DNA from: a virus
Lineage: Duplodnaviria; Caudoviricetes
IMG/VR virus record: IMGVR_UViG_3300028920_000023
Reading direction: 5' to 3' (one strand)
Length of the DNA stretch: 64,000 bases
In this document: positions 5,287 through 40,856 of the stretch, one piece after another
How the letters are laid out: the number at the start of each line of letters is the position of its first letter
How positions within the stretch are numbered: position 1 is the stretch's first letter
Position numbers and translations under genes: made by a program
Notes under the pieces: generated by a model
Told to the model about the DNA's origin: nothing
What the model saw: only the letters and a program-made list of their open reading frames with translations
Database searches by the model: none

Positions 5287-5289
5287 ATT

Positions 5290-5607
5290 ATGCCTCAGCA
5301 ACTAGATCTAACTTGGGTTCTGTACGACAAAAATTCAAACCATTACTTACTTCTATATTTAGGAGAGGCAGAAGGCTACACCATAGCCATCGACGCACGT
5401 AGAGCAACACCAAGAGATACTATGATAATCCGAGCCAACCTAAACCACCTGAGAAGAACCAATCTAGAAACCGTCCTAGAATGGGTAAAGAAAGAATTAC
5501 CCGACCTATATAACAACGCAGTAAAGAAATTCAAAACAAACCAACTTATTATAAAGAAAGAATATTCACTTTCTCAAATTGATTCTATTAAGAAGACGAG
5601 TAAGTGA
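5290..5607 (+). CDS. Hypothetical protein
   Basis: 105 aa ORF filling the gap between two minus-strand genes; A/C-ending codons like other + genes. Confidence 0.6.
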   Translation: MPQQLDLTWVLYDKNSNHYLLLYLGEAEGYTIAIDARRATPRDTMIIRANLNHLRRTNLETVLEWVKKELPDLYNNAVKKFKTNQLIIKKEYSLSQIDSIKKTSK

Positions 5608-6588
5608 GCCAGCATTCAAATTATACACATTATTCTCAATATAAGACCTAGACGAACCAGGACACTCACTGTCCATATCGTTCCAATCAATATCTGGGTC
5701 CGGAGGAATAGAATAAGCCAATTTCCTGACCTTATCCCTAAGAACAAAATAATTCTTCTTAATAGACAAAATACCAGCCTCATCAGCATCCGGAGCCAAA
5801 ACCACAAGACCAGACTCAAAAGAAACCAACTTCTTAACCTGCAAACTATTACGCGACATCATAGCACCACCAGTAGCCACACAATCACCACCAATACCCA
5901 AACAATTAAAAATAGACTCAACAACAACCACCGACTCACAACCATACTCCACATTATCAAAACCATATAAAAAATCAGACTTAGACAAACCAGTCACAGA
6001 CTCATCAGGAAAATTAAACCTCTTATTCATAACAAACCTCTCCTGCCAATAAACCAAATCATCATACTCAAAATAAGGAAAAACAATAGTAGAAGGAGTA
6101 TAATACAACCTATTCCTGGAAATCACATCATCAGAAACACCACGACCATACAAATACCGCCTATACGCCCTCTCCAACTTCTTCCCAGAATCACCAAACT
6201 CCTGACTATGTTCAGGGAGCTTCAAATGCTCCTGCGGCTTTTCATCCTTCTCCTTTTTAAGGTCCCTGATCCTATTACGCTGCAACAACCTCCTAGCAGC
6301 ACTAGGCGCACCACCAACATCAGCCAAAGCCTTATAATACGACAAATTCTTATAATTCATTACAAACTTAATAAAAGAACCATCATAATCCTGATGTTTA
6401 GGACGGAAATCATGCACCCAATTTGATACAATACCACGTTTATTCTCTTCAGCGATCAAATTAATATAAAGATTAAACCGTTTATCGCCATCCGGATTAC
6501 AAATACGCAACTGAGTCTTATTCTTCGAATACTTATATTCGAAATGCCTAGATACCCAATCTTCAATTTGATGAGCTTCTAACTTCAT
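5566..6588 (-). CDS. DNA primase (DnaG/T4 gp61-like, TOPRIM)
   Basis: IVFPYF, FLYGFD, VVVVES (TOPRIM Glu), VATGG and APDADEAG (DxD) motifs. Confidence 0.8.
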   Translation of the reverse strand: MKLEAHQIEDWVSRHFEYKYSKNKTQLRICNPDGDKRFNLYINLIAEENKRGIVSNWVHDFRPKHQDYDGSFIKFVMNYKNLSYYKALADVGGAPSAARRLLQRNRIRDLKKEKDEKPQEHLKLPEHSQEFGDSGKKLERAYRRYLYGRGVSDDVISRNRLYYTPSTIVFPYFEYDDLVYWQERFVMNKRFNFPDESVTGLSKSDFLYGFDNVEYGCESVVVVESIFNCLGIGGDCVATGGAMMSRNSLQVKKLVSFESGLVVLAPDADEAGILSIKKNYFVLRDKVRKLAYSIPPDPDIDWNDMDSECPGSSRSYIENNVYNLNAGSLTRLLNRINLRK

Positions 6589-6606: not shown

Positions 6607-9333
6607 CTAAGAACACTTAGAACTACCACAATCTTGACAAGTCCTACAAGTGCCCTCAAACTTCACATTACTACTACCACAATCAGTACACTTAAACGAA
6701 CCCTTAGCTTCCTTAGCATCAATATACTCAGTCAAAGCCCTCGCAATAGCCTTAGCAAACGACGTAACCGTCTCCTGAGACTTCAAAATCTGATCAACCA
6801 CAAACTCAATAGGAACACCATGCCTCAAAGAAGTAGAAATCAGCCTAGTAATAAGAGAAGCAGCCTCATCCTCATACCTATTCAATTGTCTTACAACCAT
6901 GGCACCACTCTCAAATTCATAAGTACCCTTCGCTTCGCCCTTATTCTTATGCTTAATTATATGACCCTTCTGCCTATCTGCAACACCAGCCTGAGCATGA
7001 TCTAAAGCAAAAACCTCGAAAACTCTACCCTTCAAAAACCCAATAAACACCGTATATATCTTACCATTCGGCTTAATCAAACGAACAACCGCATCCAACT
7101 TCCTAGGCCTCTTAGGAGACTTATGGCGCTTAATTTCAGATTCAGATTCGGATTCCGTAACCAAAACACCCTCTCTACTACCATCACGATAGACCGTAAT
7201 ACCCTTACAACCAGCCCTCCATGCCTCCTGATAATAATAGGAAATAACATCAGGCTTGCAATCCCTAGGAAGATTAACAGTATTACTAATGCTCTGATCG
7301 ATATACCTGTTCGTCACGCTCTGTAATCTGATCCTATGCTTCGGATCTACATCATGTGCCGAAATAAAATAATCAGGCAAATCCTCAGTATTATGAATCT
7401 CGCAATATTTCCTAGCAGCTGGATGAAATACGGTATGATGTTCTACCTTCTTTGACGTCCCCAGATTGGTCTTTCTCACATGCTTCATTTGGAATACTGG
7501 CTCTATCCCGGATGAGCATTGGGATATAAGAGAAAGAGAACCCGTAGGTGCTATGGCATGGATGCTTATGTTTCTGAGACCCTCTTTCTCTATTCTCCGT
7601 GTCAATCCCTCTGGGAGAGATTGCATGAATTCAGACTTCATATGGGTCTTGAAATCATAAACGGGAAAAGCACCTTTCTCAACTGCTAAATCACATGACG
7701 CCTCATAACTGTCATGGGCAAAACGGCTCATTACCTCTTCTGTCAATTCTATTGCAGACTCGTCATCAAAACGCATGCCCATCATCAGGAACAGATCAGC
7801 TAGGCCCATGATGCCCAGACCTAGGCGACGTCCATTGTCATTGGCCCATTGTTGGAATTCTTGTGGGGCTTTTTCTAGCGTTATAATATTATCTAGGAAA
7901 CGAACAGCGAGTTTTACATCTGATCCGAATTTATCATAATCGAATTCAGCTTCACTTGAAAATGGATCCTTTACGTATTTGCTCAGATTCATTGAACCTA
8001 AATTGCAGGAATCACCATGGGATAACAACGTTTCACCACAATTACCAATAATTACACCATTAGCAACAAAAGAATTTGTTTTTGGTTCTGTAAGGCAGAA
8101 TGTCTCATCTATTTTAAGATATGAGATAGATATTATTTTGGATTTAAATTTATTGTTATCTTCATAAGACCATAATTCGTCTCCTTTATTTAATTGTAAC
8201 AATTCAATTCTGCTACCATCAGTTTTTATGAATTTATGATTAGAGGTAGCATCTATATAAGAACCATTGTCCAATAATACTCTGAAGATCTTTTCTGATT
8301 TAGAAGTCCTATAAACTCTTGTTGCCTTCCCAGGACCATTAATAGTCATAATATCCAATACCAGACCTTGATCCCTGCTAATATACTCCTGATATTCGCC
8401 TTCTGCCCATAATTGTCTGGCTGTCTTATAACCAGAGTCTGTAAGAATCCTTGTATCACCAGTAATGCAAGGATTTGTAGTAACACACCCAAAACCACCA
8501 TAATGATGCGCCGGCACCGTCCTCTTAACAGTATCCCAAAACAACATACCAGGCTCACCACGCTTCCACGCACGATGAATTATCTCATTCCAAACCTTCC
8601 TAGCAGGGACCGTATCAAACACCTGGCCATTCCACTTCAAATCATACTCTCCGTCATCCTCAACAGCCCTCATAAACTCATCAGTAATCTTAACCGAAAC
8701 ATTCGCATACCGAACTAAATCAAGATCATCACCGCCCTTGATCTTAATGAAATCCATAATATCTGGATGATCAACATCAATCGAAATAAGCAAAGCACCT
8801 ATCCTACCATTCTGACCAATCATACCAGTCACAGTACTGAAAAATTGCATAAAAGAAACAGAACCTGATGACGTCCTAGCGGCATTGTGTACAGGCAAAC
8901 CTTTGGGTCTAAGCCTCGAAATATCGATACCACAACCGCCTCCGGCCTTGTAGGTCTCAGCCATCTTATATGCTGTATCGAATATACCTTTAATGGAATC
9001 TTCCTGAATGTCTATGACGTAGCAATTTTTTAGGGTTATGTTGGCATATGGGTTTCCTAGGCCGTATAAGATTCTTCCACCTGGTACAAATTTGAAATCT
9101 TCTAATAAGTCTCTGAATTTTAATTCAAATTCTTTTTTCAGCTGTTTTATTTCGGCTTGTGATATTGCTTTGGCTAATCTATCCCATAGGTGTTCTGGTT
9201 TATGTTCTGTATATAATTTGGTTTCTGGGTCTTGTAGGAAGTATTTGTCCACTAATATTTTGGCTGCTAGACGGTCTTTTGTTATTGTTTCGCATGTTTT
9301 ATATGCTTCTTCGATGGTGATACCTTCTGGCAT
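6607..9333 (-). CDS. nrdJ: Ribonucleoside reductase, class II (adenosylcobalamin-dependent), intein-containing, with C-terminal TSCPD-like/Zn-ribbon extension
   Basis: FVPGGRIL, CYV, GGGCG, NP-(intein)-CGE, RRLGLGIMGLAD, IAPTGSLS, SSGIEP, KGITVYRDGSR; C-terminal CxxC...CxxC; no beta-subunit gene in the window. Confidence 0.88.
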   Translation of the reverse strand: MPEGITIEEAYKTCETITKDRLAAKILVDKYFLQDPETKLYTEHKPEHLWDRLAKAISQAEIKQLKKEFELKFRDLLEDFKFVPGGRILYGLGNPYANITLKNCYVIDIQEDSIKGIFDTAYKMAETYKAGGGCGIDISRLRPKGLPVHNAARTSSGSVSFMQFFSTVTGMIGQNGRIGALLISIDVDHPDIMDFIKIKGGDDLDLVRYANVSVKITDEFMRAVEDDGEYDLKWNGQVFDTVPARKVWNEIIHRAWKRGEPGMLFWDTVKRTVPAHHYGGFGCVTTNPCITGDTRILTDSGYKTARQLWAEGEYQEYISRDQGLVLDIMTINGPGKATRVYRTSKSEKIFRVLLDNGSYIDATSNHKFIKTDGSRIELLQLNKGDELWSYEDNNKFKSKIISISYLKIDETFCLTEPKTNSFVANGVIIGNCGETLLSHGDSCNLGSMNLSKYVKDPFSSEAEFDYDKFGSDVKLAVRFLDNIITLEKAPQEFQQWANDNGRRLGLGIMGLADLFLMMGMRFDDESAIELTEEVMSRFAHDSYEASCDLAVEKGAFPVYDFKTHMKSEFMQSLPEGLTRRIEKEGLRNISIHAIAPTGSLSLISQCSSGIEPVFQMKHVRKTNLGTSKKVEHHTVFHPAARKYCEIHNTEDLPDYFISAHDVDPKHRIRLQSVTNRYIDQSISNTVNLPRDCKPDVISYYYQEAWRAGCKGITVYRDGSREGVLVTESESESEIKRHKSPKRPRKLDAVVRLIKPNGKIYTVFIGFLKGRVFEVFALDHAQAGVADRQKGHIIKHKNKGEAKGTYEFESGAMVVRQLNRYEDEAASLITRLISTSLRHGVPIEFVVDQILKSQETVTSFAKAIARALTEYIDAKEAKGSFKCTDCGSSNVKFEGTCRTCQDCGSSKCS
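8041..8469 (-). mobile_element. Mini-intein (143 aa, no homing endonuclease) in the RNR active-site NPCGE motif
   Basis: Starts CITGDTRILT after NP; block B ATSNHKF; ends SFVANGVIIGN followed by C+1 (CGE); removal restores NPCGE. Confidence 0.9.
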
Positions 9334-20341: not shown

Positions 20342-20601
20342 GTTACCTTCTTTGTTATTATCAGCGATTGGAAGATCTGCACAGGTTGGAAATCGCTAGC
20401 AGCTTCCAATTCTAGGTACGTTTTGATGTCTGGATTGTTGCTCGTATTTGGTATTGTATCATCAGCCAACACCCTGTGTTGGGTGTCAAAGTGTAAGTTC
20501 TCTTGTATAGATCTGCTACCGGAGCTTCTGGTGTAGACTTCGCCCGTCCGTGTATCGACATGTAGAAGACCAATATTAGCTACGTGAACCTCGACAGCCA
20601 T
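20338..20601 (-). CDS. Hypothetical protein
   Basis: 87 aa, coupled to both neighbours. Confidence 0.6.
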   Translation of the reverse strand: MAVEVHVANIGLLHVDTRTGEVYTRSSGSRSIQENLHFDTQHRVLADDTIPNTSNNPDIKTYLELEAASDFQPVQIFQSLIITKKVT

Positions 20602-21470
20602 TACTTATCTCCATTAAACATTACTTTGAACGGGTGTGCAAGCTTACTTATCTCGGCATTAAGCCCCCTCACCTTATATCTTTGAATCTCTTTATGTAAT
20701 TTGCTCATATCCAAAGATACCTTCTCAGAAAGTACTTCGGAGATATATTTGATATTTATAAGCAAATTTGGATTAATTGATAAATCAATGATCGCACGGT
20801 TCATAAGATATACTTCCTCGTCATGCGACTTAAAAAATTCTTTTCTCTTGGCATAATCACCAATAATCTTTTTAGCAGTAACAGGACCAATTTTGTGGTA
20901 TCCAACAATATTATCAGATTTGTCCCCTACAAAGACCTTCTGTTCAATCGGGTTTACATCATCCGTTGGATCATATAATCTCTTAGATTTGTTGTTGGGG
21001 CTAAAGAGGTCAACGCCTTTATACTCAAAAGCAATCTGCCTCAGATCACCGTCACTGCTGATAATAATTATTTTGTCAGAAGGACATTGCCTACAAAAAG
21101 CATAAATGAGATCATCTGCTTCTTGATTTTCTAACATATAATTCCTACAACCAAGAACATTCGTTAAAGCCTCTACAACTTCACAACAATTTTCAACAAG
21201 ATTATTAATTTCCTCTTTATCGTATTTCCCACTCCTGCTCGTATCTCTACCTTCTTTATAACTTTCTAGGAGTTGCTTCCTCCAGACTTTCTTTCTTTTA
21301 CAATCCCAGAAGATATGCACATTTTGTGGTTTGAATTTCCTAAGATATGTCGATACAAACCTGAAAAATACAACCGCAGAATGGGCCTTAAAATTTGGAT
21401 CCGATAACCCTGCATAAATAGCTCGATACGTACAATTTCTACCATCAATTAGCATGTGATCATACATCAT
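20601..21470 (-). CDS. 5'-3' exonuclease / flap endonuclease (T4 RNase H-like)
   Basis: LIDGRN, WD..WRK...YKEGR, EADDLI, SSDGDLRQ, GDKSDNIVGYHKIGPVTA. Confidence 0.9.
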   Translation of the reverse strand: MMYDHMLIDGRNCTYRAIYAGLSDPNFKAHSAVVFFRFVSTYLRKFKPQNVHIFWDCKRKKVWRKQLLESYKEGRDTSRSGKYDKEEINNLVENCCEVVEALTNVLGCRNYMLENQEADDLIYAFCRQCPSDKIIIISSDGDLRQIAFEYKGVDLFSPNNKSKRLYDPTDDVNPIEQKVFVGDKSDNIVGYHKIGPVTAKKIIGDYAKRKEFFKSHDEEVYLMNRAIIDLSINPNLLINIKYISEVLSEKVSLDMSKLHKEIQRYKVRGLNAEISKLAHPFKVMFNGDK

Positions 21471-21528: not shown

Positions 21529-22680
21529 TTATTTCTTTGCCTTCTTAGCCCTGATTCTGGCCAATAGATCCTTTACGTCCGGATCTCCCTCTGGCTCCTT
21601 CTCCGGTTCCTTCTCCTTCTCCGGCTCTGGTTCCTTCTCCGGCTCCTTCTCCGGTTCTGGCTCCTTCTCCGGCTCTGGTTCCTTCTCCGGCTCCGGCTCT
21701 GGCTCCGGCTCCTTCTCCGGTTCTGGTTCCTTCTTTTCTTCGGCTACCGGCTCATCATCAGGCAAACCGCTCTTGTCTATCTCGCCAGCTTTCGTACTAC
21801 CAAGATTCTGTGTGGCGGCGGATGTCTTATCACGCGGTTTAGACTTCGTGGCATCGATGCTCTCATCCTCATCATCGTCACCACCACCAAGCAACTCATC
21901 TACGACCTTTTCAATCTTGTCGGGGTCACGGGCTTGGAACTTGTCCTGCAAGATATGTCTTTGAGCTAAAATCTGCCCCACCTTATCCTTAACCTCCTCG
22001 AAACCATCCTTTGTCTCTTCTGAGAGAAGATGCCCCAGACTGGAGACTACAAAGCCAGACTCCTCATAATTATTATATTCGTTTTTGTTTTTGATTGATA
22101 CCTTAAAAGCATAACCCTCTTCTGGATAGAAGAAAAGACCATGAGCCTTAGGATCGATCTCATCCCCACAATCATCATTCATAAGACACTCATCACACTT
22201 ATCATAAATCGTCTTGGGAAGATTCCACCACATCACCTTCCCTCTAACTTCCTCCGGATTTGCTTTGATATCCGGAAAATACACATTAACAGCATAATAT
22301 ACGCGAGATAAATACGTCCTGGCAATCTCGCTTCTCTTCTTTTCGTCTTTCTCTTCGTCAAGAAGATCAAAACCCAACTGACATATGGCGCAATCCCCAT
22401 TGTCATGCGCTCTAGGACATTCTAACTTCAAACGCTTACCTGCCGCTCCCAGCCAGTGGTTCCCATTTTCATAGAACCAATTATCCAGGGCTTTATCTTC
22501 GGGGCAAGTTCCCGTCACACACTTCTCGCCAGCTTCCAATGGCGGCAAAAACCGTATGTAGTAGGTCTTCTTGTCTTCCTTGACGCGGGGAGGACGGAAT
22601 TCCGTTGGGTCTTTTCTTCTGGTATTACGTTCCTCTCGCTTCTTCCGCATCCGGTTTAACATATCTTTCTTGCTAATCAT
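21529..22680 (-). CDS. Single-stranded DNA-binding protein (T4 gp32-like) with acidic PEPEKE tail
   Basis: YIRFLP...WF...HW...CP....CAICQ...YYAVNV...YNNYEES; located beside a UvsY-like gene. Confidence 0.75.
21586..21745 (-). repeat. Coding tandem repeat ([10 protein letters not shown] units)
   Basis: Imperfect 6-18 bp units such as TCCTTCTCCGG(T/C)TC in the SSB C-terminus. Confidence 0.9.
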
Positions 22681-23288: not shown

Positions 23289-24422
23289 CTATCTACACGT
23301 CCGAACCTTAACCCAATCTTTCCAATGCCCACCAATACTTATCGTAAAAGGCATCCTAATATCAACCAAACCTTCAAGAGGCGAAATCATAATCTTACCA
23401 ACCTCATCTATAATATTACACACAACACGCTCCGGGCAACATAAAATCAAAGCATCATGAACCTCAGTTAGAATATACTCTGGATATTTATCAAAGACCC
23501 TAGACAAAACTGACTGCATAGCATGCACCACACTACCCTGAAATTGAGCATTAAACACACTCAATTCCCTATTATCACCCAAAACGAATTCTCTACCTAA
23601 GATCGTATCAACTTTATCATACATCCGCAATTCCTCCCTACGAGACTCCATCCAAGAACGAAAACCCGGAAATATAGAAAAAATATCATTATCGAAATTC
23701 ATAGCATACAAAGACCTAATAAAAGAATTCTTACAAACATCCCTCCCCAAACCAGTCTGATCCGAAATAACAGTATACGGATCAGACTCCGTAAAAGACC
23801 TAAGTAACTTCTTATCCCCAGACATATGCGCAGCCATACAAATATCAGCAGAAATCCAATCAAAACAAATAAAAAACTCATGATTATCATTAACTGATCT
23901 TATATTATCATCAGAAGTAGTCCCCTGGATATTAAAACCAGTTGTCTTAGACCTACCCGTCAAGGTCTGTAGACTATATCTAGGAAACTCCTTACGATAA
24001 CCGCAAAAAACACCCCTAGAATGCAACACCGAATATACAAGAGAAGCACTCGAGACAAGCCGACGCCACTGCTGAGAATAATCATCATCAATCAACTCGT
24101 CAATAATAGAACACAACGCCCTCTTGCATCTACCAAGATCATTCGTAGACAACTTAATCTCAGGAATACAATAATCATAAACATCATACGAATCACGAAT
24201 ATCTAAATCGAAAGCCTGGATATGCGAAAGAAAATCATTGCAACAAACATTATCCCGTGAAAATAACTTCTTGAACTTATTAATATTATCCTCTATCTGA
24301 TTTATAGTAAGGCCAGTATTGGGAAAATAGAAAGTATAGAACTCTATATCCTCATCATCCACTACCAAAGAAAGTAACGGAATTGGCGTCCTTTTATAAC
24401 TAAATAATGTAAGTACATTCAC
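23289..24422 (-). CDS. Compact family A DNA polymerase (polymerase domain only)
   Basis: TGRS, motif A FDWISADICMAAHMSGD, motif B RDVCKNSFIRSLY (RxxxK...Y), NAQFQG, motif C VHD. Confidence 0.8.
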   Translation of the reverse strand: MNVLTLFSYKRTPIPLLSLVVDDEDIEFYTFYFPNTGLTINQIEDNINKFKKLFSRDNVCCNDFLSHIQAFDLDIRDSYDVYDYCIPEIKLSTNDLGRCKRALCSIIDELIDDDYSQQWRRLVSSASLVYSVLHSRGVFCGYRKEFPRYSLQTLTGRSKTTGFNIQGTTSDDNIRSVNDNHEFFICFDWISADICMAAHMSGDKKLLRSFTESDPYTVISDQTGLGRDVCKNSFIRSLYAMNFDNDIFSIFPGFRSWMESRREELRMYDKVDTILGREFVLGDNRELSVFNAQFQGSVVHAMQSVLSRVFDKYPEYILTEVHDALILCCPERVVCNIIDEVGKIMISPLEGLVDIRMPFTISIGGHWKDWVKVRTCR

Positions 24423-31674: not shown

Positions 31675-32565
31675 CCTCTTAATACAAGAAGAAATATTCC
31701 TAAAATCATCCCACTCAGCATTGCTACCAACACAGAAAATATTATAAGAATCCAATAACGAAGAATCCGGAGGATCTCCCAAAGGAAAACACTCCTTAAT
31801 CCTCCTAGCCTCCATAAGATCAAAATTATACCCAATAAACTGACCAAAATAAGACAAAGGATTATCTAAAGGCTCGAAAGTACAAAAAATATAATCATTC
31901 GCAGAAATCTTATAAACCTTATAAAAAGCAATATTAGAATCACAAACCAAACTAGTCTCAGCACCCTCCAAATCAACCTTATCAGACCTAATCCAATAAA
32001 AACAAGTATCCTTAGACCTCAAATCACAAGACAAATTACAATAATCATATAAAGCATTCAAAGGAATAGTCGATACAATATTGTCAAAAGACAAAACCTG
32101 ATTCTCACAAGAAACAGTCTTATCCGACAACCTAATACTAACCACCTTACCCTGAGAAGCAACCCGACTATTAATCTCATCAATATAAATCCTAGACAAA
32201 CTACGATTCAATTCAAGACAAGTAATAGAATACACAGTCAGATTTGTCTTCAACAACTTATCAGCAACACTCGGAATAGCATCACCATAAACCTTACTCA
32301 AATACGAATCAACAGTTAAAGGAACCTCCTGATACATCAACTGGCCAGTATGAGAAAAAGGCCTCTTATAAAACAAAATAGGTCTATCTTTGTTAAACTC
32401 CTCTATAAAATCATCAACATCACTATCAATAGTAATATAATTATCAGAAAAGGGGATATCGTGACTATAATATCTAGACCTACCAAAAGGAACCAAAACC
32501 CACTCCGGCCCCAAAATATGCCTAGCAACCAAACCAACAACACCACTACCAAGAATCAAGTTCAT
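31645..32565 (-). CDS. FAD/NAD-binding oxidoreductase-like protein
   Basis: N-terminal ILGSGVVG; FDNIVSTIPL; CVGSNAEW (resembles GRxaxW). Confidence 0.6.
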   Translation of the reverse strand: MNLILGSGVVGLVARHILGPEWVLVPFGRSRYYSHDIPFSDNYITIDSDVDDFIEEFNKDRPILFYKRPFSHTGQLMYQEVPLTVDSYLSKVYGDAIPSVADKLLKTNLTVYSITCLELNRSLSRIYIDEINSRVASQGKVVSIRLSDKTVSCENQVLSFDNIVSTIPLNALYDYCNLSCDLRSKDTCFYWIRSDKVDLEGAETSLVCDSNIAFYKVYKISANDYIFCTFEPLDNPLSYFGQFIGYNFDLMEARRIKECFPLGDPPDSSLLDSYNIFCVGSNAEWDDFRNISSCIKRLLGYSGRFK

Positions 32566-32921
32566 AATTGATCCGGTTTAAAAACACCAATAGAAATAGG
32601 ATCACAAAAAGGATACTCAGTAGGTTCAGAAACAGCCCTGACCTCATCAACCACCTGACCCTCTTTAGCAACAACAACCTTATCTTTCTTAGGAATCTTC
32701 GGCGGTACAGAACCACAATCAGAACACCCAACCAAATACCTATCATCCCTCTTATCGACATCCGTCAACCTAAACTGAACCATACCACCACATGCAGGAC
32801 ACGTCGTCTCATAAGAAATAACACTAACAGGATTCTGATCAGCATCCATTTCGAATTCTATGGGTCGAGCATCTAGGTCATGTTTGTTTATAGTGACCTG
32901 TATTCTATCGAAGACATTCAT
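32562..32921 (-). CDS. Hypothetical Zn-ribbon protein
   Basis: CPACG...CSDCG. Confidence 0.65.
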   Translation of the reverse strand: MNVFDRIQVTINKHDLDARPIEFEMDADQNPVSVISYETTCPACGGMVQFRLTDVDKRDDRYLVGCSDCGSVPPKIPKKDKVVVAKEGQVVDEVRAVSEPTEYPFCDPISIGVFKPDQL

Positions 32922-33193
32922 GTGCTAGTGGTCCAATCTGATTTTTCTTTTTCCCGTTTCCGAATATTTACCAACACACGCTCCTTAATCTCATTATAAC
33001 ACAATGTGCAGATATCAAGATTAATCAATCTCTCATCAACAGATTTAGGCCCAGACCTCTGAACAACACAATCCACCTCAACCATATCAAAATTCACACT
33101 CAAATACTCAAATTTCTTAGTCAAAATCTTATTGCATAAATCACACCTAATACCAACAGCCTTCTTAGTCTTAGGATCACAATAAGCTACCAT
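32918..33193 (-). CDS. Hypothetical Zn-binding protein
   Basis: CDLC...DICTLC. Confidence 0.65.
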   Translation of the reverse strand: MVAYCDPKTKKAVGIRCDLCNKILTKKFEYLSVNFDMVEVDCVVQRSGPKSVDERLINLDICTLCYNEIKERVLVNIRKREKEKSDWTTST

Positions 33194-35736
33194 AACGGAT
33201 AATCCTCATCTCTAACCCTCTGTAAATCATCAGGACTCAAAGGCTCCTCCTCATCCTCAATATCAGCCCTCATAAGACGAATAATATCAGTATTATTACT
33301 GAACCTAAAACTCTTCCTAGGTACATTATAAATAATACCATCTATGTAAATCCCATTATCAACCTTCATAAGACCCTTATTCGCAGAAAAAATATCAGCC
33401 CAACAAACAATATCAGCAGTCTGCACACCATCCGTGACTCTAAGAGCATAATATGGATTGCCCTTCTTAGATTTTCTAGGCTCAACCTTCTCAATAACAA
33501 CCTCAAGCTTCTGAATAATCTCATCACTCTCCTGCTTGGCATTATCAATACACTTCTGTATCGTATAGCCCGTAGTACGGTACAAATCCAAAGGAGAATG
33601 CCAATAATAACCCAAATACTCCTTCTCAATATCCAACTGTTCGCGCAAATCAAAATCCTCGACACGAGCACTAATATCCTCATAAGAAGGATCTATCTTC
33701 GGAGTAAAAAACTCAACCTTCTTAGGCAACTTCTTCCGCTTCGGATACCACTCCTTATACTCAGCAATCTTCTTATCACGAATCTCCTGCAACTTATCAT
33801 CACTAAGCTTAAACCAAGAAGCAATTTCTTCACGCAACTCCTTGGTATTCTTATCCTTAGAATACTTCCAAACATAATAATACCACAAAGCCTTCTTATT
33901 AGCATACAACTTATCAAAAGCACCTAACTTAATAAGACGCTCAAAAACCGTTTTCTTCTTACCGCACTTCTCTATAACCTCCTCCAAACTAGTAAAGGAA
34001 GTACCGTAGGCCTTGGTAAAAGGCTCGGCAACAGAAGCACCAATACCCTTAATAGACTGAATACCAATAGTGACCTCATCACCATGAACAGTAAAATAGT
34101 CAGTCAACCTACAAACATCTAAAACACCAAACTTCACCTCATCCTTCTTAGCGGCACTCATATACAATGGTAACTTCTCTTGGTGGCATGCAGTCATAGC
34201 AGCAGCCCACCACTCAGCTGGATAATTCGCCTTAAGATACAAGCACATGTATGTTATAAGCGAGTACGCAACGCTATGGGATTTATTGAAGGCGTACCTG
34301 CCGAATGACTGCATACTTAGCCAATAATTATTTGTAGCTTCTTCACCAATTTCACTTATAGCACCTTCCTTCCACCTCTTTTCTACGTCTGGGAGCTTAT
34401 CTTCCCACTTCTTAGCAATAACCTTCCTAGCAAACTCAGCCTCAGGAACAGTAAAACCAGCCAAAGACTGCCACAAAGCCTGTAGTTGCTCCTGGTAACA
34501 AATAATCCCATAAGTATCCTCAAGAATCTTTACAATACGCTTATCCTGCCCAACCTGCCACCCATCGGGATCCTCATCGCGCCTCCTAATGTACTCTGGA
34601 ATTGTGTCAATAGGACCCGGACGCCCCAAGGCATTATAAATAACAAGATCATTAAAATCCTTCACAGAACCATCAGAAATAATGCCCTTCTGAATATCAG
34701 TCTCAACCTGAAAAACAGACTCAGTCTTAAGAGCATTACACATAGCAAGCGCCTTCTCATCCTTCAAAGAAATGCGCCTCTCAGAACCATCCAGATGGAC
34801 CTCGACACCAGCCTTATCAATCGTCGGATCAGGGTCAGACCAATCAATAACAATATTACGATTATTCTTAATATGCTCACCAGCCAACCACACATAACCC
34901 ATCGTCTTCAAGCCAAGAATATCGAACTTAACAAAACCCAACTTAGATAACTGAGTACTCCTACCCTCAGTCCACTGACTAGTCCAAGACTTATTATCAC
35001 CCCTACCCATATACGACAACGGAACAATATTCTCAATAGGCCTATCAGCAATAATCAACCCACCAGCATGAGTACCCTGAGTCTTAATCTTACCAACAAG
35101 ACGAAAAGCATAATCAACAATCTTCCTAGTAGTATCATCCCTCTCCCAATACTCATAAAAAGGTTTATACCTAGACAATTCCTTATGCGCTTCAGCCCTA
35201 ACCTCAGAAGGCAAAGACTTATCCTCAGCCTGCACCTTATACCTCTCAAGATCCTCCAAAGTCAAAGCATCAAACTCATCCGGAATCAATTTACTAAACT
35301 TAATAACCTCCCTAAAATCCTCACCCATAGCCCTAGAAACATCCTGCAAAGCACTCTTCGGCTTATACGTAACCCAACTACCAACACTACAAACATTCTT
35401 ATACTTATCATAAGCATACCTCTTAATATAATCCCTAGCATGAGGCAAAAAATCAATATCAATATCCGGAAAATCCGTCTGATATACCCATTTGTGCTCT
35501 ATAGACTCAGACAAAGGATCAACAGGCGTCATACCCAATAACCAAGGAAGAACCAACCCATTCTTATTATCATCCCACCTCTTCTTATTGACATAATAAT
35601 CCACCCAGCGCATAATAACGCCCTGCTTCTCAATCTCATAAAGCTCATCATCTAATCTATCATGATATTCTTCTGGGAGGTTTCTCTTCTTTAATTCTTG
35701 CAGGGCTTCCTTCTTAACATCTTCCCAGCTAGCCAT
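33187..35736 (-). CDS. dnaE: DNA polymerase III alpha, C-terminal part (catalytic palm, fingers, HhH, OB)
   Basis: PDIDIDF, GTHAGGLII, KFDILGLKT, ALGRPGP, ICYQEQ, YAFNKSHSVAYS, LKANYP, IKGIG, OB fold; no PHP domain. Confidence 0.93.
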   Translation of the reverse strand: MASWEDVKKEALQELKKRNLPEEYHDRLDDELYEIEKQGVIMRWVDYYVNKKRWDDNKNGLVLPWLLGMTPVDPLSESIEHKWVYQTDFPDIDIDFLPHARDYIKRYAYDKYKNVCSVGSWVTYKPKSALQDVSRAMGEDFREVIKFSKLIPDEFDALTLEDLERYKVQAEDKSLPSEVRAEAHKELSRYKPFYEYWERDDTTRKIVDYAFRLVGKIKTQGTHAGGLIIADRPIENIVPLSYMGRGDNKSWTSQWTEGRSTQLSKLGFVKFDILGLKTMGYVWLAGEHIKNNRNIVIDWSDPDPTIDKAGVEVHLDGSERRISLKDEKALAMCNALKTESVFQVETDIQKGIISDGSVKDFNDLVIYNALGRPGPIDTIPEYIRRRDEDPDGWQVGQDKRIVKILEDTYGIICYQEQLQALWQSLAGFTVPEAEFARKVIAKKWEDKLPDVEKRWKEGAISEIGEEATNNYWLSMQSFGRYAFNKSHSVAYSLITYMCLYLKANYPAEWWAAAMTACHQEKLPLYMSAAKKDEVKFGVLDVCRLTDYFTVHGDEVTIGIQSIKGIGASVAEPFTKAYGTSFTSLEEVIEKCGKKKTVFERLIKLGAFDKLYANKKALWYYYVWKYSKDKNTKELREEIASWFKLSDDKLQEIRDKKIAEYKEWYPKRKKLPKKVEFFTPKIDPSYEDISARVEDFDLREQLDIEKEYLGYYWHSPLDLYRTTGYTIQKCIDNAKQESDEIIQKLEVVIEKVEPRKSKKGNPYYALRVTDGVQTADIVCWADIFSANKGLMKVDNGIYIDGIIYNVPRKSFRFSNNTDIIRLMRADIEDEEEPLSPDDLQRVRDEDYPLW

Positions 35737-36142
35737 TATATTGTGGTTCCTTAGTCTTAGCAGTTACAGCAGTCATATCCGATAATTGCTTTATCACAGG
35801 ATCATCCTGTACGAAATTTACAGAACACTTCTCATAACTAAGAAATAACTTACGAATCCTCTCAACAACCTCAGTATTCTTAATAGCTTTCCTCTTCCAA
35901 TCACCACCTTCTCTAGCCAACATCATAGGCACGTACTTCCCACCAACATTAACCGTAGACTGCTTACGATGTTTAGGCAACACACTAGAAAGAGCCAACT
36001 CCACAGCCTTCAACTCAGCCTGATTATTAGTCATTTTAGGAACAGGAACAGACCTAGTCAGATTGTGCTTTTCATGATTAAGACGAATCGTAATCGCAGC
36101 ACCTCTCTTACCATAATTCCGACCATGAACCCACATAATCAT
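35729..36142 (-). CDS. RNase H-fold protein, probably catalytically inactive
   Basis: TNNQAELKAV retained; the usual DG Asp appears as HG and the TDS Asp as GG. Confidence 0.65.
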   Translation of the reverse strand: MIMWVHGRNYGKRGAAITIRLNHEKHNLTRSVPVPKMTNNQAELKAVELALSSVLPKHRKQSTVNVGGKYVPMMLAREGGDWKRKAIKNTEVVERIRKLFLSYEKCSVNFVQDDPVIKQLSDMTAVTAKTKEPQYNG

Positions 36143-36507
36143 ATCTTTGGAACCTCCACACCATGTCTCTTCAACTCATCAACCTTCATGTTACAAAACT
36201 CTACCAAAAGAGTTTTAGTCTCTAACGGATGAAGCTTATAATTATTTACAATGCGCTCAAGATTATCATATCGAGTATCATTTGCAAACATCCTCAACCT
36301 CTCGGTCAAGGCCTCAGCAATATAAACCAAAGGTAAACAAATAATATGTGAAATATCTTCTCTGAATTTTTCATCATCCTCAGCAAGAACAGAATCTATA
36401 ACATCCGGCCACTTATCTGTAATCTTAGAAATATCTAGGGGACCAGCATACATACGTATTGCATATAAGCTTTTCTTAGCTTCTGAAACAAGCTTGTTCT
36501 TATCCAT
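36139..36507 (-). CDS. Hypothetical protein
   Basis: 122 aa, coupled to neighbours. Confidence 0.65.
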   Translation of the reverse strand: MDKNKLVSEAKKSLYAIRMYAGPLDISKITDKWPDVIDSVLAEDDEKFREDISHIICLPLVYIAEALTERLRMFANDTRYDNLERIVNNYKLHPLETKTLLVEFCNMKVDELKRHGVEVPKI

Positions 36508-36509
36508 AA

Positions 36510-38000
36510 TTAATCCATAGAAACATTCAACATATAACCACCACGACTAGGGCTCAGGAACCTATTGAAAGACAAACCCTTCCATTTCAAAGGATCCAAA
36601 CTGTGAATGCCCAACAAGTAACACACCAAACTACCACCAGCAGAACCACGAGCAGGACCAACCGGCCAATTATGATGATCCGTAGAACGTCTAACCAAAT
36701 CCTGAGTAATTAAGAAATAAGAAGCAAAACCCTTCTCACAAAACCTCTTCAATTCAATCTCAACCTGCTCCCTATACGTCACCTCCCTGCCATCCATAGG
36801 ATACTTCTTATCACACTTATCCAAACCACGCTTCTTAAGCTCCCCATAAACAGAAGAGACTAATTTATATTCAGCCTCCTCAGGCGTACCTATCGTAGGC
36901 AACTTAGGATCTAAACTCGGCTTAAAAGTCTCACACTTTTCAGCAACCTCCAAAGTATTATCACAAGAACTCTCAAATAAACTCCTATCAACAAAATCAG
37001 AATATAAACCCCTACTAAAAGTAGCCCTCAACTCTGCCCTAGTCTTAAGATACTGCTCACTAGAATTCACATGAAATAACCCAGGATCATCATAAGTCAT
37101 GTCCTGATCTATAGCCATCATCAACTTCTGAAGCATAAAATCACGACGATCCAAATAGTGGCTATCGTTTGATAGTACTGTTTTAATACCCATATTATCC
37201 GCAAGAGATGCCAACAATGCAAAAATCTCGGAATCATGCCTTTCCTCATTAAACATAATCCCAGGCATCTGAAGCTCTATATAATAATCATCACCAAACA
37301 CCTCTCTAAATTTCTTAATATAATCTACAGCACCAGTTGTAAATTTTTTAGAATCTAAATTACCTCTTACTAATTCATGACTTACCGGACCATTCAAACA
37401 CCCAGACAATATAATCAGCCCCTCACAATGCTTAGCCAACACATCAAACCACACCCTCGGCTTATAGTAGAAACCATTCAGATAAGCATGACGATTTATT
37501 TTCAAAAGATTCTCATACCCAGTCATATTCTTGCAGATGACTGTCAGATGTCTGTTTCTTCTGAAACGCATCTGTAAATCGGGATCTTCCTCACCGATAT
37601 CTTTCATGGTAGCCCCCTGCGATATTAGTTGTTTCCTAAGGGGCTCGTAATCATTATAATAAATCTCACATCCTGAAAGGTATTTTATATTATGTTGTTT
37701 GGATGCGAAATAAGCATCTGGGACGCTGTTTAGTGTTCCGTGCTCTGTTATGGCTATTGCCGGCCATTTGTTATCTTCGCATTTTTGGAAGTAGTCTTCT
37801 GGGGATGCAACCCCGTCTAGGATGCTGAATAGGGTATGGTTATGGAGGTGGACCATTTCTGTTGGTCCAGGATATAGTTTCTCTGCTTCTTCTGCTGATA
37901 ATTCTTGTTCTAGTTCTTGTTCTCGTACTCTAATTTCAGCTTGCGGGGGTTTCTGTTCCGCTTGGGGTTTCTGTTCCGCTTGTGTCTGCGTCTGTTCCAT
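36510..38000 (-). CDS. dnaE: DNA polymerase III alpha, N-terminal part (PHP domain plus RGS motif)
   Basis: HLHNHT.FSILDG, AITEHG, GCEIY, HLTV, YYKPR, SGCL.G, NDSHY, GPARGSAGGSLVCYLLGI..LDP, LSFNRFL; stops just before where PDIDID would lie. Confidence 0.92.
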   Translation of the reverse strand: MEQTQTQAEQKPQAEQKPPQAEIRVREQELEQELSAEEAEKLYPGPTEMVHLHNHTLFSILDGVASPEDYFQKCEDNKWPAIAITEHGTLNSVPDAYFASKQHNIKYLSGCEIYYNDYEPLRKQLISQGATMKDIGEEDPDLQMRFRRNRHLTVICKNMTGYENLLKINRHAYLNGFYYKPRVWFDVLAKHCEGLIILSGCLNGPVSHELVRGNLDSKKFTTGAVDYIKKFREVFGDDYYIELQMPGIMFNEERHDSEIFALLASLADNMGIKTVLSNDSHYLDRRDFMLQKLMMAIDQDMTYDDPGLFHVNSSEQYLKTRAELRATFSRGLYSDFVDRSLFESSCDNTLEVAEKCETFKPSLDPKLPTIGTPEEAEYKLVSSVYGELKKRGLDKCDKKYPMDGREVTYREQVEIELKRFCEKGFASYFLITQDLVRRSTDHHNWPVGPARGSAGGSLVCYLLGIHSLDPLKWKGLSFNRFLSPSRGGYMLNVSMD

Positions 38001-38343
38001 TCGTGTCCGCCTTTTCTGTCTTCATCGTCTCTAATATCATCCGACGCAGAGGCGTAATCATCTTCCTGACCTCATTAAGGCCATTCCTAGCCCTTCGGCC
38101 TGCGGATTTATTATTACCATCAATAGATTTCTGGGCATTTGAGGCAATATCTTGTGCCACGTCAATAAGCTTCTGGAGCTCAGGATCATATTCCTCAGTG
38201 ACCTGTACCACATCCGTATCGACTTCCGCTGGTTTTCCTTCTGACATAGCTTTCTGAGCCTCCACGCAACCTTTGAGATGAAGATTAAACCCAGCGGAAC
38301 TCGTACAGAGTTTACCGCATACGCATTGATGGAATTTGTTCAT
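37936..38343 (-). CDS. Zn-finger plus histone H1-like (Hc1-like) protein
   Basis: CVCGKLC....FNLHLKGC; GNNKSAGRRARNGLNEVRKMITPLRR resembles the Hc1 family GNKAAGTRARK motif. Confidence 0.55.
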   Translation of the reverse strand: MNKFHQCVCGKLCTSSAGFNLHLKGCVEAQKAMSEGKPAEVDTDVVQVTEEYDPELQKLIDVAQDIASNAQKSIDGNNKSAGRRARNGLNEVRKMITPLRRMILETMKTEKADTNGTDADTSGTETPSGTETPAS

Positions 38344-40856
38344 ACCGACTCGGGATCTGTAGTTGAACAGGCATCGGGAGGCAAACACATCCTATAAGTA
38401 ACCGAGATAACACCAGTAATCCTACCAGGTCTTCTAACAGAATCCCAAAGACCAGCAAGAACGACCGCATCAACAGGCTCATCTCCACTCTGATCATCAC
38501 CTAAAATATTGATATAATGATCAAGCTTGATGTACTGTGTCAATGGATCAATATTATTGTCGTCATCCCGACCACCCGGATTATTAGCCTCCAGCCCATT
38601 GGTTACCGAAGTCACAAAATCCTGCACGTCACGAGTTATATACCTACCATCCCTAACAACCTGAGATCTAGTCAACAGATTACCGGCATCATCATACTTA
38701 TACTCATCATACAACGGAGGCGGATTCGCAGTACGATCACCATCCGGATCCACATGTGCACCATCAGGCCAAACATTACCCTTCGTGGAGACCCTAGCTA
38801 TAATCCTCTTATGCTGAGAATCCAAAATCTCATAAGCATCACCAACAGCAGGACGATCAGTACCATCACCAAGCGTAGGCCAAGGACGACGCAAAATCAA
38901 AGTATCAGAAGTATTATCACGAATAGTCCTACTAACACCAGCGAAAGCACCATCAACCATCGTAACCCGATAACCATTATTAGCAGGAAAATCCCCACCA
39001 TCATCATTATCGCGTTCACGCCACTGACCAGCAACCCAAGACTGACCAGAATCAATCAAATTACGCCTAGTAGAAGCAACCTGAGTAACAGTCCCAGAAC
39101 CATCCGCAGGAGGACCATCCGGAGTAGTAGAAGACAAAGCCGTCAAACTATCACTCAAATTATTATGAATCGTATGACCATCACCACGAAGATTATCCCT
39201 CTTATTCTCATAAGGTTCCCGATCACCAGGCCACTCCTGACGAGTAGACCTATTAGACACCGGATCACCCTGACGACGCTCAAGCGTAACCAAATCGAAA
39301 GTATAATAATTCCTCAAAGAATACTCAGCATTCGAAGAATTACGCGCAACACGAACAGCCGCAGTCAAATCCAACAAATACATATTCACAGCCTGCCTAT
39401 GAACCTTCACAGGCGTCAAATACTCATAATCCTTATTAATATTACCACGGAACTGCTGAGTATGACTCCTGCCAATAATAGGAACAGTCAACTGGAAAAT
39501 ATCAACACTCACCCACGCCCCAGTCTCCAGCGGGTCTAAAGAACGAACAACATCCGGATCATAATACCACTGAATATTCCTAGAAGTATCAAACCAAACC
39601 CTACAATCCGGAACAGCCGCATTAGAATCCCCAGAAGTAGCCGGAATCTCAGGACAATCACGCTGAACACAAATAGCAGACTCACCACCAACCGAAACCG
39701 GCAACCACCCAGTATTACCACCATCATTAAACACCTTCACCCACAAAGTATCATTCTCAGTGGGCTCATCAGAACCAACCGCATCACCACTACTCCGACC
39801 ATAAATCGCACCAATCGGAGCATAAACATAACCCTCAGGACTACCAGCACCAAACTTTACATTGTCGCCAGTAACGAATCCAGAAATATTAGCAGTAGCA
39901 TTTCCAGGAGCATTAGCAGCATTACTAACACTCCCAGCGATAATATGATTCGTAGCAACCACATCACCATAGACATCCAAACCCTCTTTAGAAAAAATGC
40001 CACGAACACCAGGACACTCACCAGCCTCGCCCGTATAAAACCTAATCGTCCCATCAGAAACCGTATCACCATCAACCCGCAACTCAATAGCACAAGAACC
40101 ATGCGCAGTAGGAGAATCTATACCACACTCAGCAGTCTCCTGAAACTGCACATTCTGACTAATAAACGAATGCTCAGAATCATCACCAGAAAAACCAACC
40201 ATAGACTGAAAACGACCAAAAGTCTGACCCGACTGAACACGATACTCACGATTGCCACCAACGCTATCTAAATAAACATCCCCACCAGAAACCCACAACC
40301 TATTACCAAGACCACTAGAAACCTCACCAGTACCAATAAGAACATTACCCTCAGAATCACCACGCATCAACTCAGAAATAACACCATCAGAATCCGTAGT
40401 AGCAAACTGAATATAACCAGACTTATCACCATCAACATCATTCTCCTTACGACCAGCAATAGTAGCAAAAGCAAAAGCCGAATAATCAGACTCAGCAGAA
40501 CGACCACTAAACCTCAACTGAGGGCCAACATCCTTAGCAGGACAATTACAACTAATAAGACGAATATTACCAGCCAACTCACCAGAATCAACAACATCAG
40601 ATTCTAACTGGAAACCAGCACTACTACGATAAATCTTCTGGCCAAAAATCTCAAACTGATCTGAGTAAGTATCTACAAAGACTTTCTCAGTAGAACCCGT
40701 ACCACCCCTGGAAATACCCAGAGGCTGGTCAGAATCCGCAATGGCATTAGTCAGAGCTAACTGATAAGCCTGTTCAGCCTTATCCGCAACCTCTTGGATA
40801 AGATCCTCATAACGCCTAATCCCATCACGACTATTCTCGCCCATAATCACCCCCAT
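38340..40856 (-). CDS. Large virion structural / tail-fibre-like protein
   Basis: 838 aa, G/D/S/T-rich; contains GAGSPEGYVYAPIGAIYGR...LWVK...GNTGW, a motif common in tail spikes. Confidence 0.55.
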   Translation of the reverse strand: MGVIMGENSRDGIRRYEDLIQEVADKAEQAYQLALTNAIADSDQPLGISRGGTGSTEKVFVDTYSDQFEIFGQKIYRSSAGFQLESDVVDSGELAGNIRLISCNCPAKDVGPQLRFSGRSAESDYSAFAFATIAGRKENDVDGDKSGYIQFATTDSDGVISELMRGDSEGNVLIGTGEVSSGLGNRLWVSGGDVYLDSVGGNREYRVQSGQTFGRFQSMVGFSGDDSEHSFISQNVQFQETAECGIDSPTAHGSCAIELRVDGDTVSDGTIRFYTGEAGECPGVRGIFSKEGLDVYGDVVATNHIIAGSVSNAANAPGNATANISGFVTGDNVKFGAGSPEGYVYAPIGAIYGRSSGDAVGSDEPTENDTLWVKVFNDGGNTGWLPVSVGGESAICVQRDCPEIPATSGDSNAAVPDCRVWFDTSRNIQWYYDPDVVRSLDPLETGAWVSVDIFQLTVPIIGRSHTQQFRGNINKDYEYLTPVKVHRQAVNMYLLDLTAAVRVARNSSNAEYSLRNYYTFDLVTLERRQGDPVSNRSTRQEWPGDREPYENKRDNLRGDGHTIHNNLSDSLTALSSTTPDGPPADGSGTVTQVASTRRNLIDSGQSWVAGQWRERDNDDGGDFPANNGYRVTMVDGAFAGVSRTIRDNTSDTLILRRPWPTLGDGTDRPAVGDAYEILDSQHKRIIARVSTKGNVWPDGAHVDPDGDRTANPPPLYDEYKYDDAGNLLTRSQVVRDGRYITRDVQDFVTSVTNGLEANNPGGRDDDNNIDPLTQYIKLDHYINILGDDQSGDEPVDAVVLAGLWDSVRRPGRITGVISVTYRMCLPPDACSTTDPESV

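Follow-up and report, generated by a model that had tools for sequence, protein, structure and literature searches.

A C-family DNA polymerase encoded as two intein-free chains with a duplicated palm segment and a probably shared active site in a jumbo phage

Replicative C-family DNA polymerases are textbook single-chain catalytic subunits. In a 64,000-nucleotide (nt) stretch of tailed-virus DNA (Duplodnaviria; Caudoviricetes) from IMG/VR record IMGVR_UViG_3300028920_000023, here called the window, the corresponding enzyme is encoded by two genes, which we term DnaE-N and DnaE-C. The home contig of the window is 354,787 bp long. Our analysis indicates that the polymerase of this jumbo phage is probably an obligate two-chain enzyme of the DnaE type, in which the two products each contribute a different set of catalytic residues to a composite active site. 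A first-pass annotation of the DNA had proposed a heterodimer of this kind, and the proposal is now supported by family-wide conservation, by complementary sets of invariant residues and by a model of the complex. All coordinates given below are those of the window, and the whole polymerase cassette lies on the minus strand.

The cassette consists of four genes. DnaE-N (P0001; 36510-38000) encodes 496 amino acids (aa) comprising a low-complexity N-terminal extension, a PHP domain and the nucleotide-binding N-terminal part of the palm. Gene X (P0003; 36139-36507) encodes a helical protein of 122 aa with a KWPD motif, and gene R (P0004; 35729-36142) a protein of 137 aa with an RNase HI fold. DnaE-C (P0002; 33187-35736) encodes 849 aa that form, in order, a head, the catalytic palm strands, thumb, fingers, helix-hairpin-helix (HhH) domain, OB fold and an acidic tail ending in YPLW. 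The TAA stop codon of DnaE-N is followed after 2 nt by the ATG of X, an ATGA overlap joins the stop of X to the start of R, and the ATG of DnaE-C is located 8 nt inside the 3' end of R. DnaE-N and DnaE-C are separate open reading frames (ORFs) 780 nt apart with two genes between them, and the enzyme of the window is not the single polypeptide of other C-family DnaE-type polymerases.

DnaE-N was matched in Pfam by the PHP domain and, over residues 390-486, by positions 5-98 of PF07733. The PHP core (37158-37850; PF02811, E 4.6e-40) is N-terminal, resembles the E. coli PHP chimera 4gx8 with Z 30, and has its metal ligands H51/H53, D62, H87, E112, H151, C201, D279 and H281 at nine positions that are all conserved in the family. 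The ligand set is complete, as in DnaE of the Taq and Mycobacterium tuberculosis type. By analogy with PHP domains of that type, the DnaE-N PHP domain is likely an active 3'-5' proofreading exonuclease. In alignments to solved structures, residues 148-486 correspond to E. coli DnaE 80-396. DnaE-N ends 10 residues past the last aligned position, where the canonical enzyme enters the catalytic PDIDIDF strand. The last part of the chain, the N tail (residues 378-496; 36513-36869), is the canonical copy of a segment that recurs in DnaE-C (PF07733 4-98, E 5e-25) and is among the best-conserved parts of DnaE-N. It runs through the helix that precedes strand 1, strand 1 itself, the RGS loop and the C-family insert, and closes with SPSRGGYMLNV, which is specific to the family. 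The GS signature of the nucleotidyltransferase fold is R451-G452-S453 (36642-36650) and does not vary among 114 N halves; the GS motif of this fold binds the incoming deoxynucleoside triphosphate (dNTP) (PMC11646218). Also invariant is R486-G487-G488 (36537-36545), a triplet specific to the split family that lies in the predicted interface with the C head, at a position where canonical DnaE instead has ...ERVSMP.

An AlphaFold2 model of DnaE-N reached a predicted local distance difference test (pLDDT) score of 91.3, the last 25 residues being weaker (59-79) when the chain was modelled alone. In structural comparison by VIA, it matched DnaE of E. coli, Taq and M. tuberculosis as a single body from the first residue on, tail included (Z 34-35 over model residues 44-496). 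We place the start of DnaE-N further upstream than the M49 chosen by gene callers because a conserved YPGP motif precedes M49. The low-complexity extension contains an exact 18-nt tandem repeat (37946-37981) that encodes QAEQKP twice.

DnaE-C was matched in Pfam by PF07733 positions 7-260 (residues 8-275), by the fingers family PF17657 and by HHH_6, and its residues 23-617 align to E. coli DnaE 320-898 in solved structures. The metal-binding palm strand 2 carries D91-I-D93-I-D95 of PDIDIDF (35452-35466), equivalent to E. coli D401, D403 and D405, and K270-F-D272 (34921-34929), equivalent to E. coli K553/D555, contains the third catalytic Asp. In the E. coli enzyme D401, D403 and D555 are metal ligands, and D405 is conserved throughout DnaE (PMC3919608). 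Downstream of the palm lie the fingers (residues 320-460; 34357-34779; PF17657, E 6e-30), the HhH domain, which is the beta-binding part (residues 539-616; 33889-34122; PF14579, E 6.2e-10), and the OB fold (residues 719-826; 33259-33582), which had VIA Z ~11 to OB folds of RPA, SSB and Teb1 and was also included within DnaE alignments. This is the arrangement of a DnaE-type polymerase. The AlphaFold2 model of DnaE-C had a pLDDT of 93.0 and matched the same DnaE structures (Taq, E. coli) with Z 20-23. The first-pass annotation had thus described both chains correctly, DnaE-N as holding a PHP domain and the RGS motif and stopping before PDIDID, and DnaE-C as holding all three catalytic Asp, the fingers, HhH and OB. 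The nearest C halves have an acidic stretch at the C terminus, closed by [YE]P[LI][WF]; in the window this end reads DEDYPLW (33187-33230). By analogy with SSB-type or clamp-binding tails, which it resembles, the tail may bind a partner.

Aligned to E. coli and Taq DnaE, a comparison proposed at the outset, the two chains tile the solved structures and overlap over E. coli 320-396; they also have about 90 positions of PF07733 in common. On the 1190-position phage DnaE family of PHROGs, DnaE-N covers 17-439 and DnaE-C 342-1053. A GS/GG signature located between strands 1 and 2 is common to all members of the nucleotidyltransferase fold, and C-family enzymes have an insert of about 40 residues between this signature and strand 2 (PMC11646218). 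DnaE-N and DnaE-C are separated after the GS motif and before the DxD strand, where the C-family insert ends. R451, G452, S453, G456, R480 and the PHP ligand positions are invariant in 114 N halves, and the nucleotide-binding residues are found only in N. D91, D93, D95, K270 and D272 are invariant in 100 C halves and found only in C, the head of which has NKNG in place of RGSA and a His in place of R480. The GS motif and three Asp of a DnaE-type palm are consequently present in the two chains jointly and in neither alone. As read from aligned sequences, the catalytic residues are split in a complementary manner: each chain by itself holds an incomplete site, and the pair holds exactly one.

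The head of DnaE-C (residues 1-88; 35473-35736) is a diverged second copy of the overlap segment. Direct BLASTP gave no significant match between DnaE-N and DnaE-C (E 0.19), C residues 1-95 on their own matched PF07733 under the Pfam cut-off (E 0.0048, 17 bits), and no nucleotide-level repeat was found between the N-tail and C-head segments. Comparison of family profiles by hhalign, with the first 86 positions of 100 C halves set against the last 135 of 114 N halves, aligned C 5-77 with N 378-473 over 73 columns (probability 95.5%, E 1.5e-8), which bears out the earlier claim that C begins with a degenerate copy of the end of the N-terminal chain. The strings quoted for it, ELKKRGL/ELKKRNL, SLVCYLLGIHSLDPL/GLVLPWLLGMTPVDPL and RGSA/NKNG, are present in the N and C translations. 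NKNG (N57-K58-N59-G60; 35557-35568) stands in place of the RGSA loop, with N57 invariant and G60 nearly so. Predicted helices of N (373-390, 409-422, 426-442, 452-462) and of the C head (4-17, 22-37, 41-49, 62-66) agree in pattern, apart from an extra hairpin at N 400-407 that is absent from the head.

The head is conserved about as well as the remainder of its chain, with a mean column identity of 35% versus 37% for the whole chain and with Q38, N57 and P74 invariant, and it was modelled within DnaE-C at pLDDT 89-97. A search of 1.84 billion representative proteins with the head profile returned 192 clusters at 50% identity. Among the 150 clusters listed, the head is at or near the protein start in 149 and therefore belongs to the split form only; the sole exception is P0372, a repetitive protein of 1487 aa matched at 322-370 (E 1.2e-6). 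Since it also occurs as a stand-alone protein of about 130 aa in at least 25 clusters, the head is a separable module.

Modelling of N with C had been suggested as a check, and was carried out with ESMFold2 on N 49-496 and C 1-540 using our own alignments. The pair scored 0.87, and the best of three controls 0.00. When the score was calibrated, 58 of 80 solved complexes and 2 of 110 mismatched pairs attained the mark, a guide that is rough here because our own alignments were used. Contacts agreed between runs at 93% or better, with partner pLDDT of at least 89. Among the lowest-error contacts, N 435/438 pairs with C 104/107, the former in the helix preceding strand 1 and the latter in that following strand 2, which form the core helix pair of the nucleotidyltransferase fold (PMC11646218). 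On the N side the interface contains the RGS loop (445-456) and the entire end (479-496); on the C side it contains head residues 30-64, residues 81-97 around the DxD strand and residues 265-274 around K270/D272. N 491 contacts both C 34 and C 83, and the interface lists also contain the invariants that are specific to the family (R486-G487-G488 in N; Q38, G39 and N57 in C). In the model of the complex, the N tail lies against the C palm, and the last 18 residues of N lie against the C head.

From the models and conservation we infer that the N tail is the active copy and the head a clasp. In the proposed mechanism, chain N would supply the PHP domain (the probable proofreader), the helix before strand 1, strand 1, the dNTP-binding RGS loop and R480, and its tail would occupy the canonical palm position as the working piece. 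Chain C would supply the metal-binding strand with D91/D93/D95, K270/D272, the thumb, fingers, HhH and OB. The degenerate C head, with its dNTP-binding residues lost, would sit elsewhere as a displaced paralogue and docking module, clasping the family-specific C-terminal extension of N (…SPSRGGYMLNV), which would run alongside the C segment that leads into the DxD strand. Two polypeptides would thereby make up one active site, with neither protein nor RNA splicing involved.

The split is not peculiar to the window. The protein database holds about 1000 N-half-like proteins, mostly of 440-510 aa, with 52-67% identity among the best 120, and more than 100 C halves that lack PHP (780-920 aa; 38-55% identity). 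Homologues of N and C sit on contigs of up to 408 kb, and at every locus examined both are found together in one cassette. The search for the same split in relatives, also proposed earlier, thus found it in more than 100 contigs. The gene order N, X, R, C, with two or three small genes between the halves, was kept at six sampled loci, namely IMG/VR L001-L003 (40% identity), L006 and L007/L008, and genes downstream of the cassette were syntenic as well. Because the cut site recurs in more than 100 diverged contigs from independent assemblies, the split is, as far as comparison of sequences can tell, old and under selection, and neither an error nor a relic. One of the relatives, L008 (GCA_038848635.1, a 119,972-bp contig with N, X, R, C, UDG and Cpn10), sits in a metagenome-assembled genome of Candidatus Nitrosocaldus, and is probably either a virus contig binned with an archaeon or a virus of the archaeon.

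In INPHARED the cassette had no close relative, every match being below 35% identity; LR756511 (595 kb) and MT835750 carry an intact single-chain DnaE. Both halves share their nearest intact phage DnaEs in the phage collection, for example MT838831 and JX006077, and the matches of DnaE-N and DnaE-C overlap on the same 94 codons of MT838831, which fits a single ancestral gene. The first-pass annotation attributed the overlap to duplication followed by reciprocal loss. Homology of the two segments held up, with the duplication itself an interpretation, the head being equally far from N tails and from intact DnaEs: a hidden Markov model of the head scored 9-21 bits with the N tails of its own family and 16-18 bits with two intact DnaEs. 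Given such similar scores, duplication within the lineage is plausible, and a chimera of pieces from two dnaE genes would look the same.

Several points weigh against a composite site in which the head is only a clasp. The pass of the complex model may stem from likeness to solved single-chain DnaE, in which case it shows that the chains jointly resemble DnaE rather than that they bind, and both binding and activity of the chains are modelled properties. The strong conservation of NKNG could mean that the head has a catalytic or regulatory role of its own. Furthermore, the position of the head is read from structural alignments that do not all agree. Most VIA alignments of the DnaE-C model begin at residue 85, equivalent to E. 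coli 397 and Taq 459, and therefore leave the head outside the aligned range, whereas those to 5fku, 5fkv and 5fkw start at residue 2 or 34. Because of these three, and because VIA gives only the two end residues of each aligned range, it is no more than likely that the head lies outside the canonical palm site. The same observations could be taken to reverse the roles of the two copies, with the C head in the canonical palm, DnaE-C self-contained with NKNG as its nucleotide loop, and DnaE-N a PHP proofreading subunit docked by its tail. Such an arrangement would account for the conservation of the head, including N57 and G60, for its confident modelling within C (pLDDT 89-97) and for the few alignments that start early. 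It would leave unexplained why RGS and R480 are invariant in 114 N halves, where they would be useless for a mere handle, and would require a palm that lacks the universally conserved GS/GG signature. It also sits poorly with the lowest-error contacts, which join N 435/438 to C 104/107 as the core-helix pair of the fold, and with the majority of alignments that begin at residue 85. We consider the reversed arrangement unlikely.

Two proteins that never form a complex are very unlikely in our estimation. DnaE-C might then be a repair or specialised polymerase and DnaE-N a stand-alone PHP nuclease or phosphoesterase; stand-alone PHP proteins do exist, and replication need not rest on DnaE alone in a window that also holds a family A polymerase-like gene of 377 aa and a FEN gene. 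Independent enzymes would not be expected to share one cassette at every locus examined, nor would a free nuclease be expected to keep some 120 palm residues with invariant catalytic-site residues, and the complex model, with the caveat of likeness to solved DnaE, separated the pair (0.87) from the controls (0.00). We find it scarcely credible that protein trans-splicing, RNA splicing or ribosomal bypass joins the halves again, or that an assembly error or a decaying pseudogene is at hand. Inteins do tend to occur in this family: among homologues of N or of C, several contain intein and LAGLIDADG domains, some of them full inteins, and in some relatives Hint-like pieces and micro-inserts with stop codons are found at other places in the gene. 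Against rejoining, neither chain of the window had a Hint or intein match in Pfam, nor did N 440-496 and C 1-95 even at E<=5, in line with the earlier reading that intein motifs are absent, and the scan of 32000-39000 for Rfam introns gave only a chance match to sR2 (E 0.48). No space is left for an intein, since N stops 10 residues past the canonical alignment and C begins with the head, and both ends at the cut align to the DnaE palm rather than to an intein. Moreover, the 780-nt gap is filled by two conserved protein genes, the joined halves would carry a palm subdomain twice, and an error or pseudogene is contradicted by the same cut in more than 100 diverged contigs from independent assemblies. 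The obligate two-chain polymerase with a composite site accordingly remains our preferred account.

Further breaks were seen in the dnaE genes of some relatives. The free head ORF of about 130 aa consists of the head plus some 50 beta-rich, weakly Hint-like residues. Between the free head and the polymerase body, a small ORF with the pattern MKI…G.PH.I..YH.DFP was found in three relatives (L009:4456-5930, L010:1120-2040 and L012:4605-5360). In the same three, a stop-containing micro-insert lies inside FPDIDIDF, of 7 nt in L009 (TGAGCTA, with a frame change), 9 nt in L010 (in-frame TGA GAC GAC) and 6 nt in L012 (in-frame TAG CTT). These micro-inserts could be a sign of recoding, by readthrough, a hop or a +1 frameshift, or the gene could be split once more at the DxD strand; DnaE-C of the window is uninterrupted at FPDIDIDF. 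Directly after the free head of L009, on the opposite strand, a DUF7487 protein (4808-5686, minus strand of the locus) has weak endonuclease I / TnsA-like and helix-turn-helix matches. It is likely a mobile endonuclease, and hints at how breaks in the dnaE gene arise.

The two genes between the halves had been noted as unrelated and as evidence that the split is not an error. They are indeed present, and the split is not an error, yet neither gene is incidental, both being conserved members of the cassette that keep their place between N and C in relatives at about 20-25% identity. Gene R matched PF00075 (E 4.2e-7) and, in the Atlas, RNase HI with a template modelling (TM) score of 0.83. Although the fold is present, R has only the Glu of the catalytic DEDD set of RNase HI (HG for DG, GG for DS), in the window and three relatives alike. 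Gene X has a conserved KWPD motif and no recognisable family in Pfam or PHROGs; an Atlas search with X returned only weak helical-bundle look-alikes (TM <0.5). That X and R are further polymerase subunits is a guess, and their position alone is no proof of such a role because the wider region is syntenic as well.

In comparison with single-chain DnaE (E. coli 2HNH/5FKU, T. aquaticus 2HPI/3E0D, M. tuberculosis 5LEW/7PU7), the window pair has the same domains in the same order. It differs in having two polypeptides, an extra degenerate copy of E. coli 320-396 and two conserved small genes between the halves, and no tau-binding C-terminal domain was found in it, the chain ending instead in the acidic YPLW tail. 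Cyanobacterial dnaE (Synechocystis, Nostoc punctiforme) likewise consists of two genes. The cyanobacterial halves carry split-intein halves, are ligated to one chain and are cut at another site (Caspi 2003, as cited in PMC3919608), whereas the window enzyme has no intein, is cut inside the catalytic fold and has a duplicated overlap; it is not a split-intein DnaE. T4-like phages possess "genes in pieces", such as split gp43 and split nrdA with mobE. In these and in fractured genes, essential phage replication genes are likewise found in separately translated pieces, often beside a homing endonuclease. Halves of a split intein flank a free-standing homing endonuclease gene in fractured genes (Dassa et al. 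2009, PMC2677866). Neither a split intein nor an endonuclease gene is present at the N|C cut of the window, the pieces overlap by a duplicated segment, and the intervening genes, encoding a helical protein and a pseudo-RNase H, belong to no endonuclease family, which sets the window dnaE apart from a fractured gene. The endonuclease-like gene that follows the head in L009 marks a different break from the N|C cut.

Our literature search found no account of the present architecture; besides papers on inteins and fractured genes it returned the nearest case, a minimal Pol III alpha of T4-like jumbo phages of group 2.2 (Iyer et al. 2021, PMC7824862). That enzyme consists of an N-terminal, NTP-binding protein and a C-terminal, Mg- and DNA-binding protein, has no intein, is encoded by distant genes and occurs beside a family B polymerase, and reconstitution of one enzyme was predicted. 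The structural junction is the same as that of the window enzyme. By its description, the minimal enzyme is set apart by having no PHP, no fingers-to-OB body and no described overlap; in the window enzyme PHP, fingers, HhH and OB are all present, and a single cassette encodes both halves. The window ORFs scanned included no family B polymerase.

Other genes of the window include a 377-aa ORF (23289-24422, minus strand) that matches only positions 233-380 of the 381 of PF00476 (E 2e-12) and encodes either an unusually short enzyme of the PolA type or part of a second polymerase that is split. Adjoining this family A polymerase-like ORF are a FEN 5'-3' exonuclease (20601-21470) and a gp32-like SSB (21529-22680). 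The large subunit of ribonucleotide reductase (6607-9333, minus strand) has a TSCPD domain at its C terminus and a weak intein-splicing match, below cut-off, at residues 326-388 (E 5e-6). Upstream of the polymerase cassette lies a Volactin-family gene (PF25216; 41158-42471, minus strand), and one likewise lies upstream of the cassette in a relative (L009:401-1555).

If the two chains work as proposed, a large and widespread phage clade would long have relied on a polymerase with its active site divided between two proteins. The junction known from the minimal phage Pol III alpha (Iyer et al. 2021, PMC7824862) would thereby be extended to a full-size enzyme. A broader picture, which we regard as rather unlikely, is that of a multi-subunit phage replicase in which the duplicated catalytic subdomain serves as a socket, the site is completed on assembly, the PHP/dNTP module is exchangeable or gated, and X and R are further subunits. 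For annotation, the finding calls for caution, as the halves are labelled "DNA polymerase III alpha" twice or mistaken for fragments. A natural intein-free polymerase split could also inform the design of engineered split enzymes. The family would further represent a natural experiment in how far the nucleotidyltransferase fold tolerates fission, and in the reuse of a duplicated catalytic piece as an interface.

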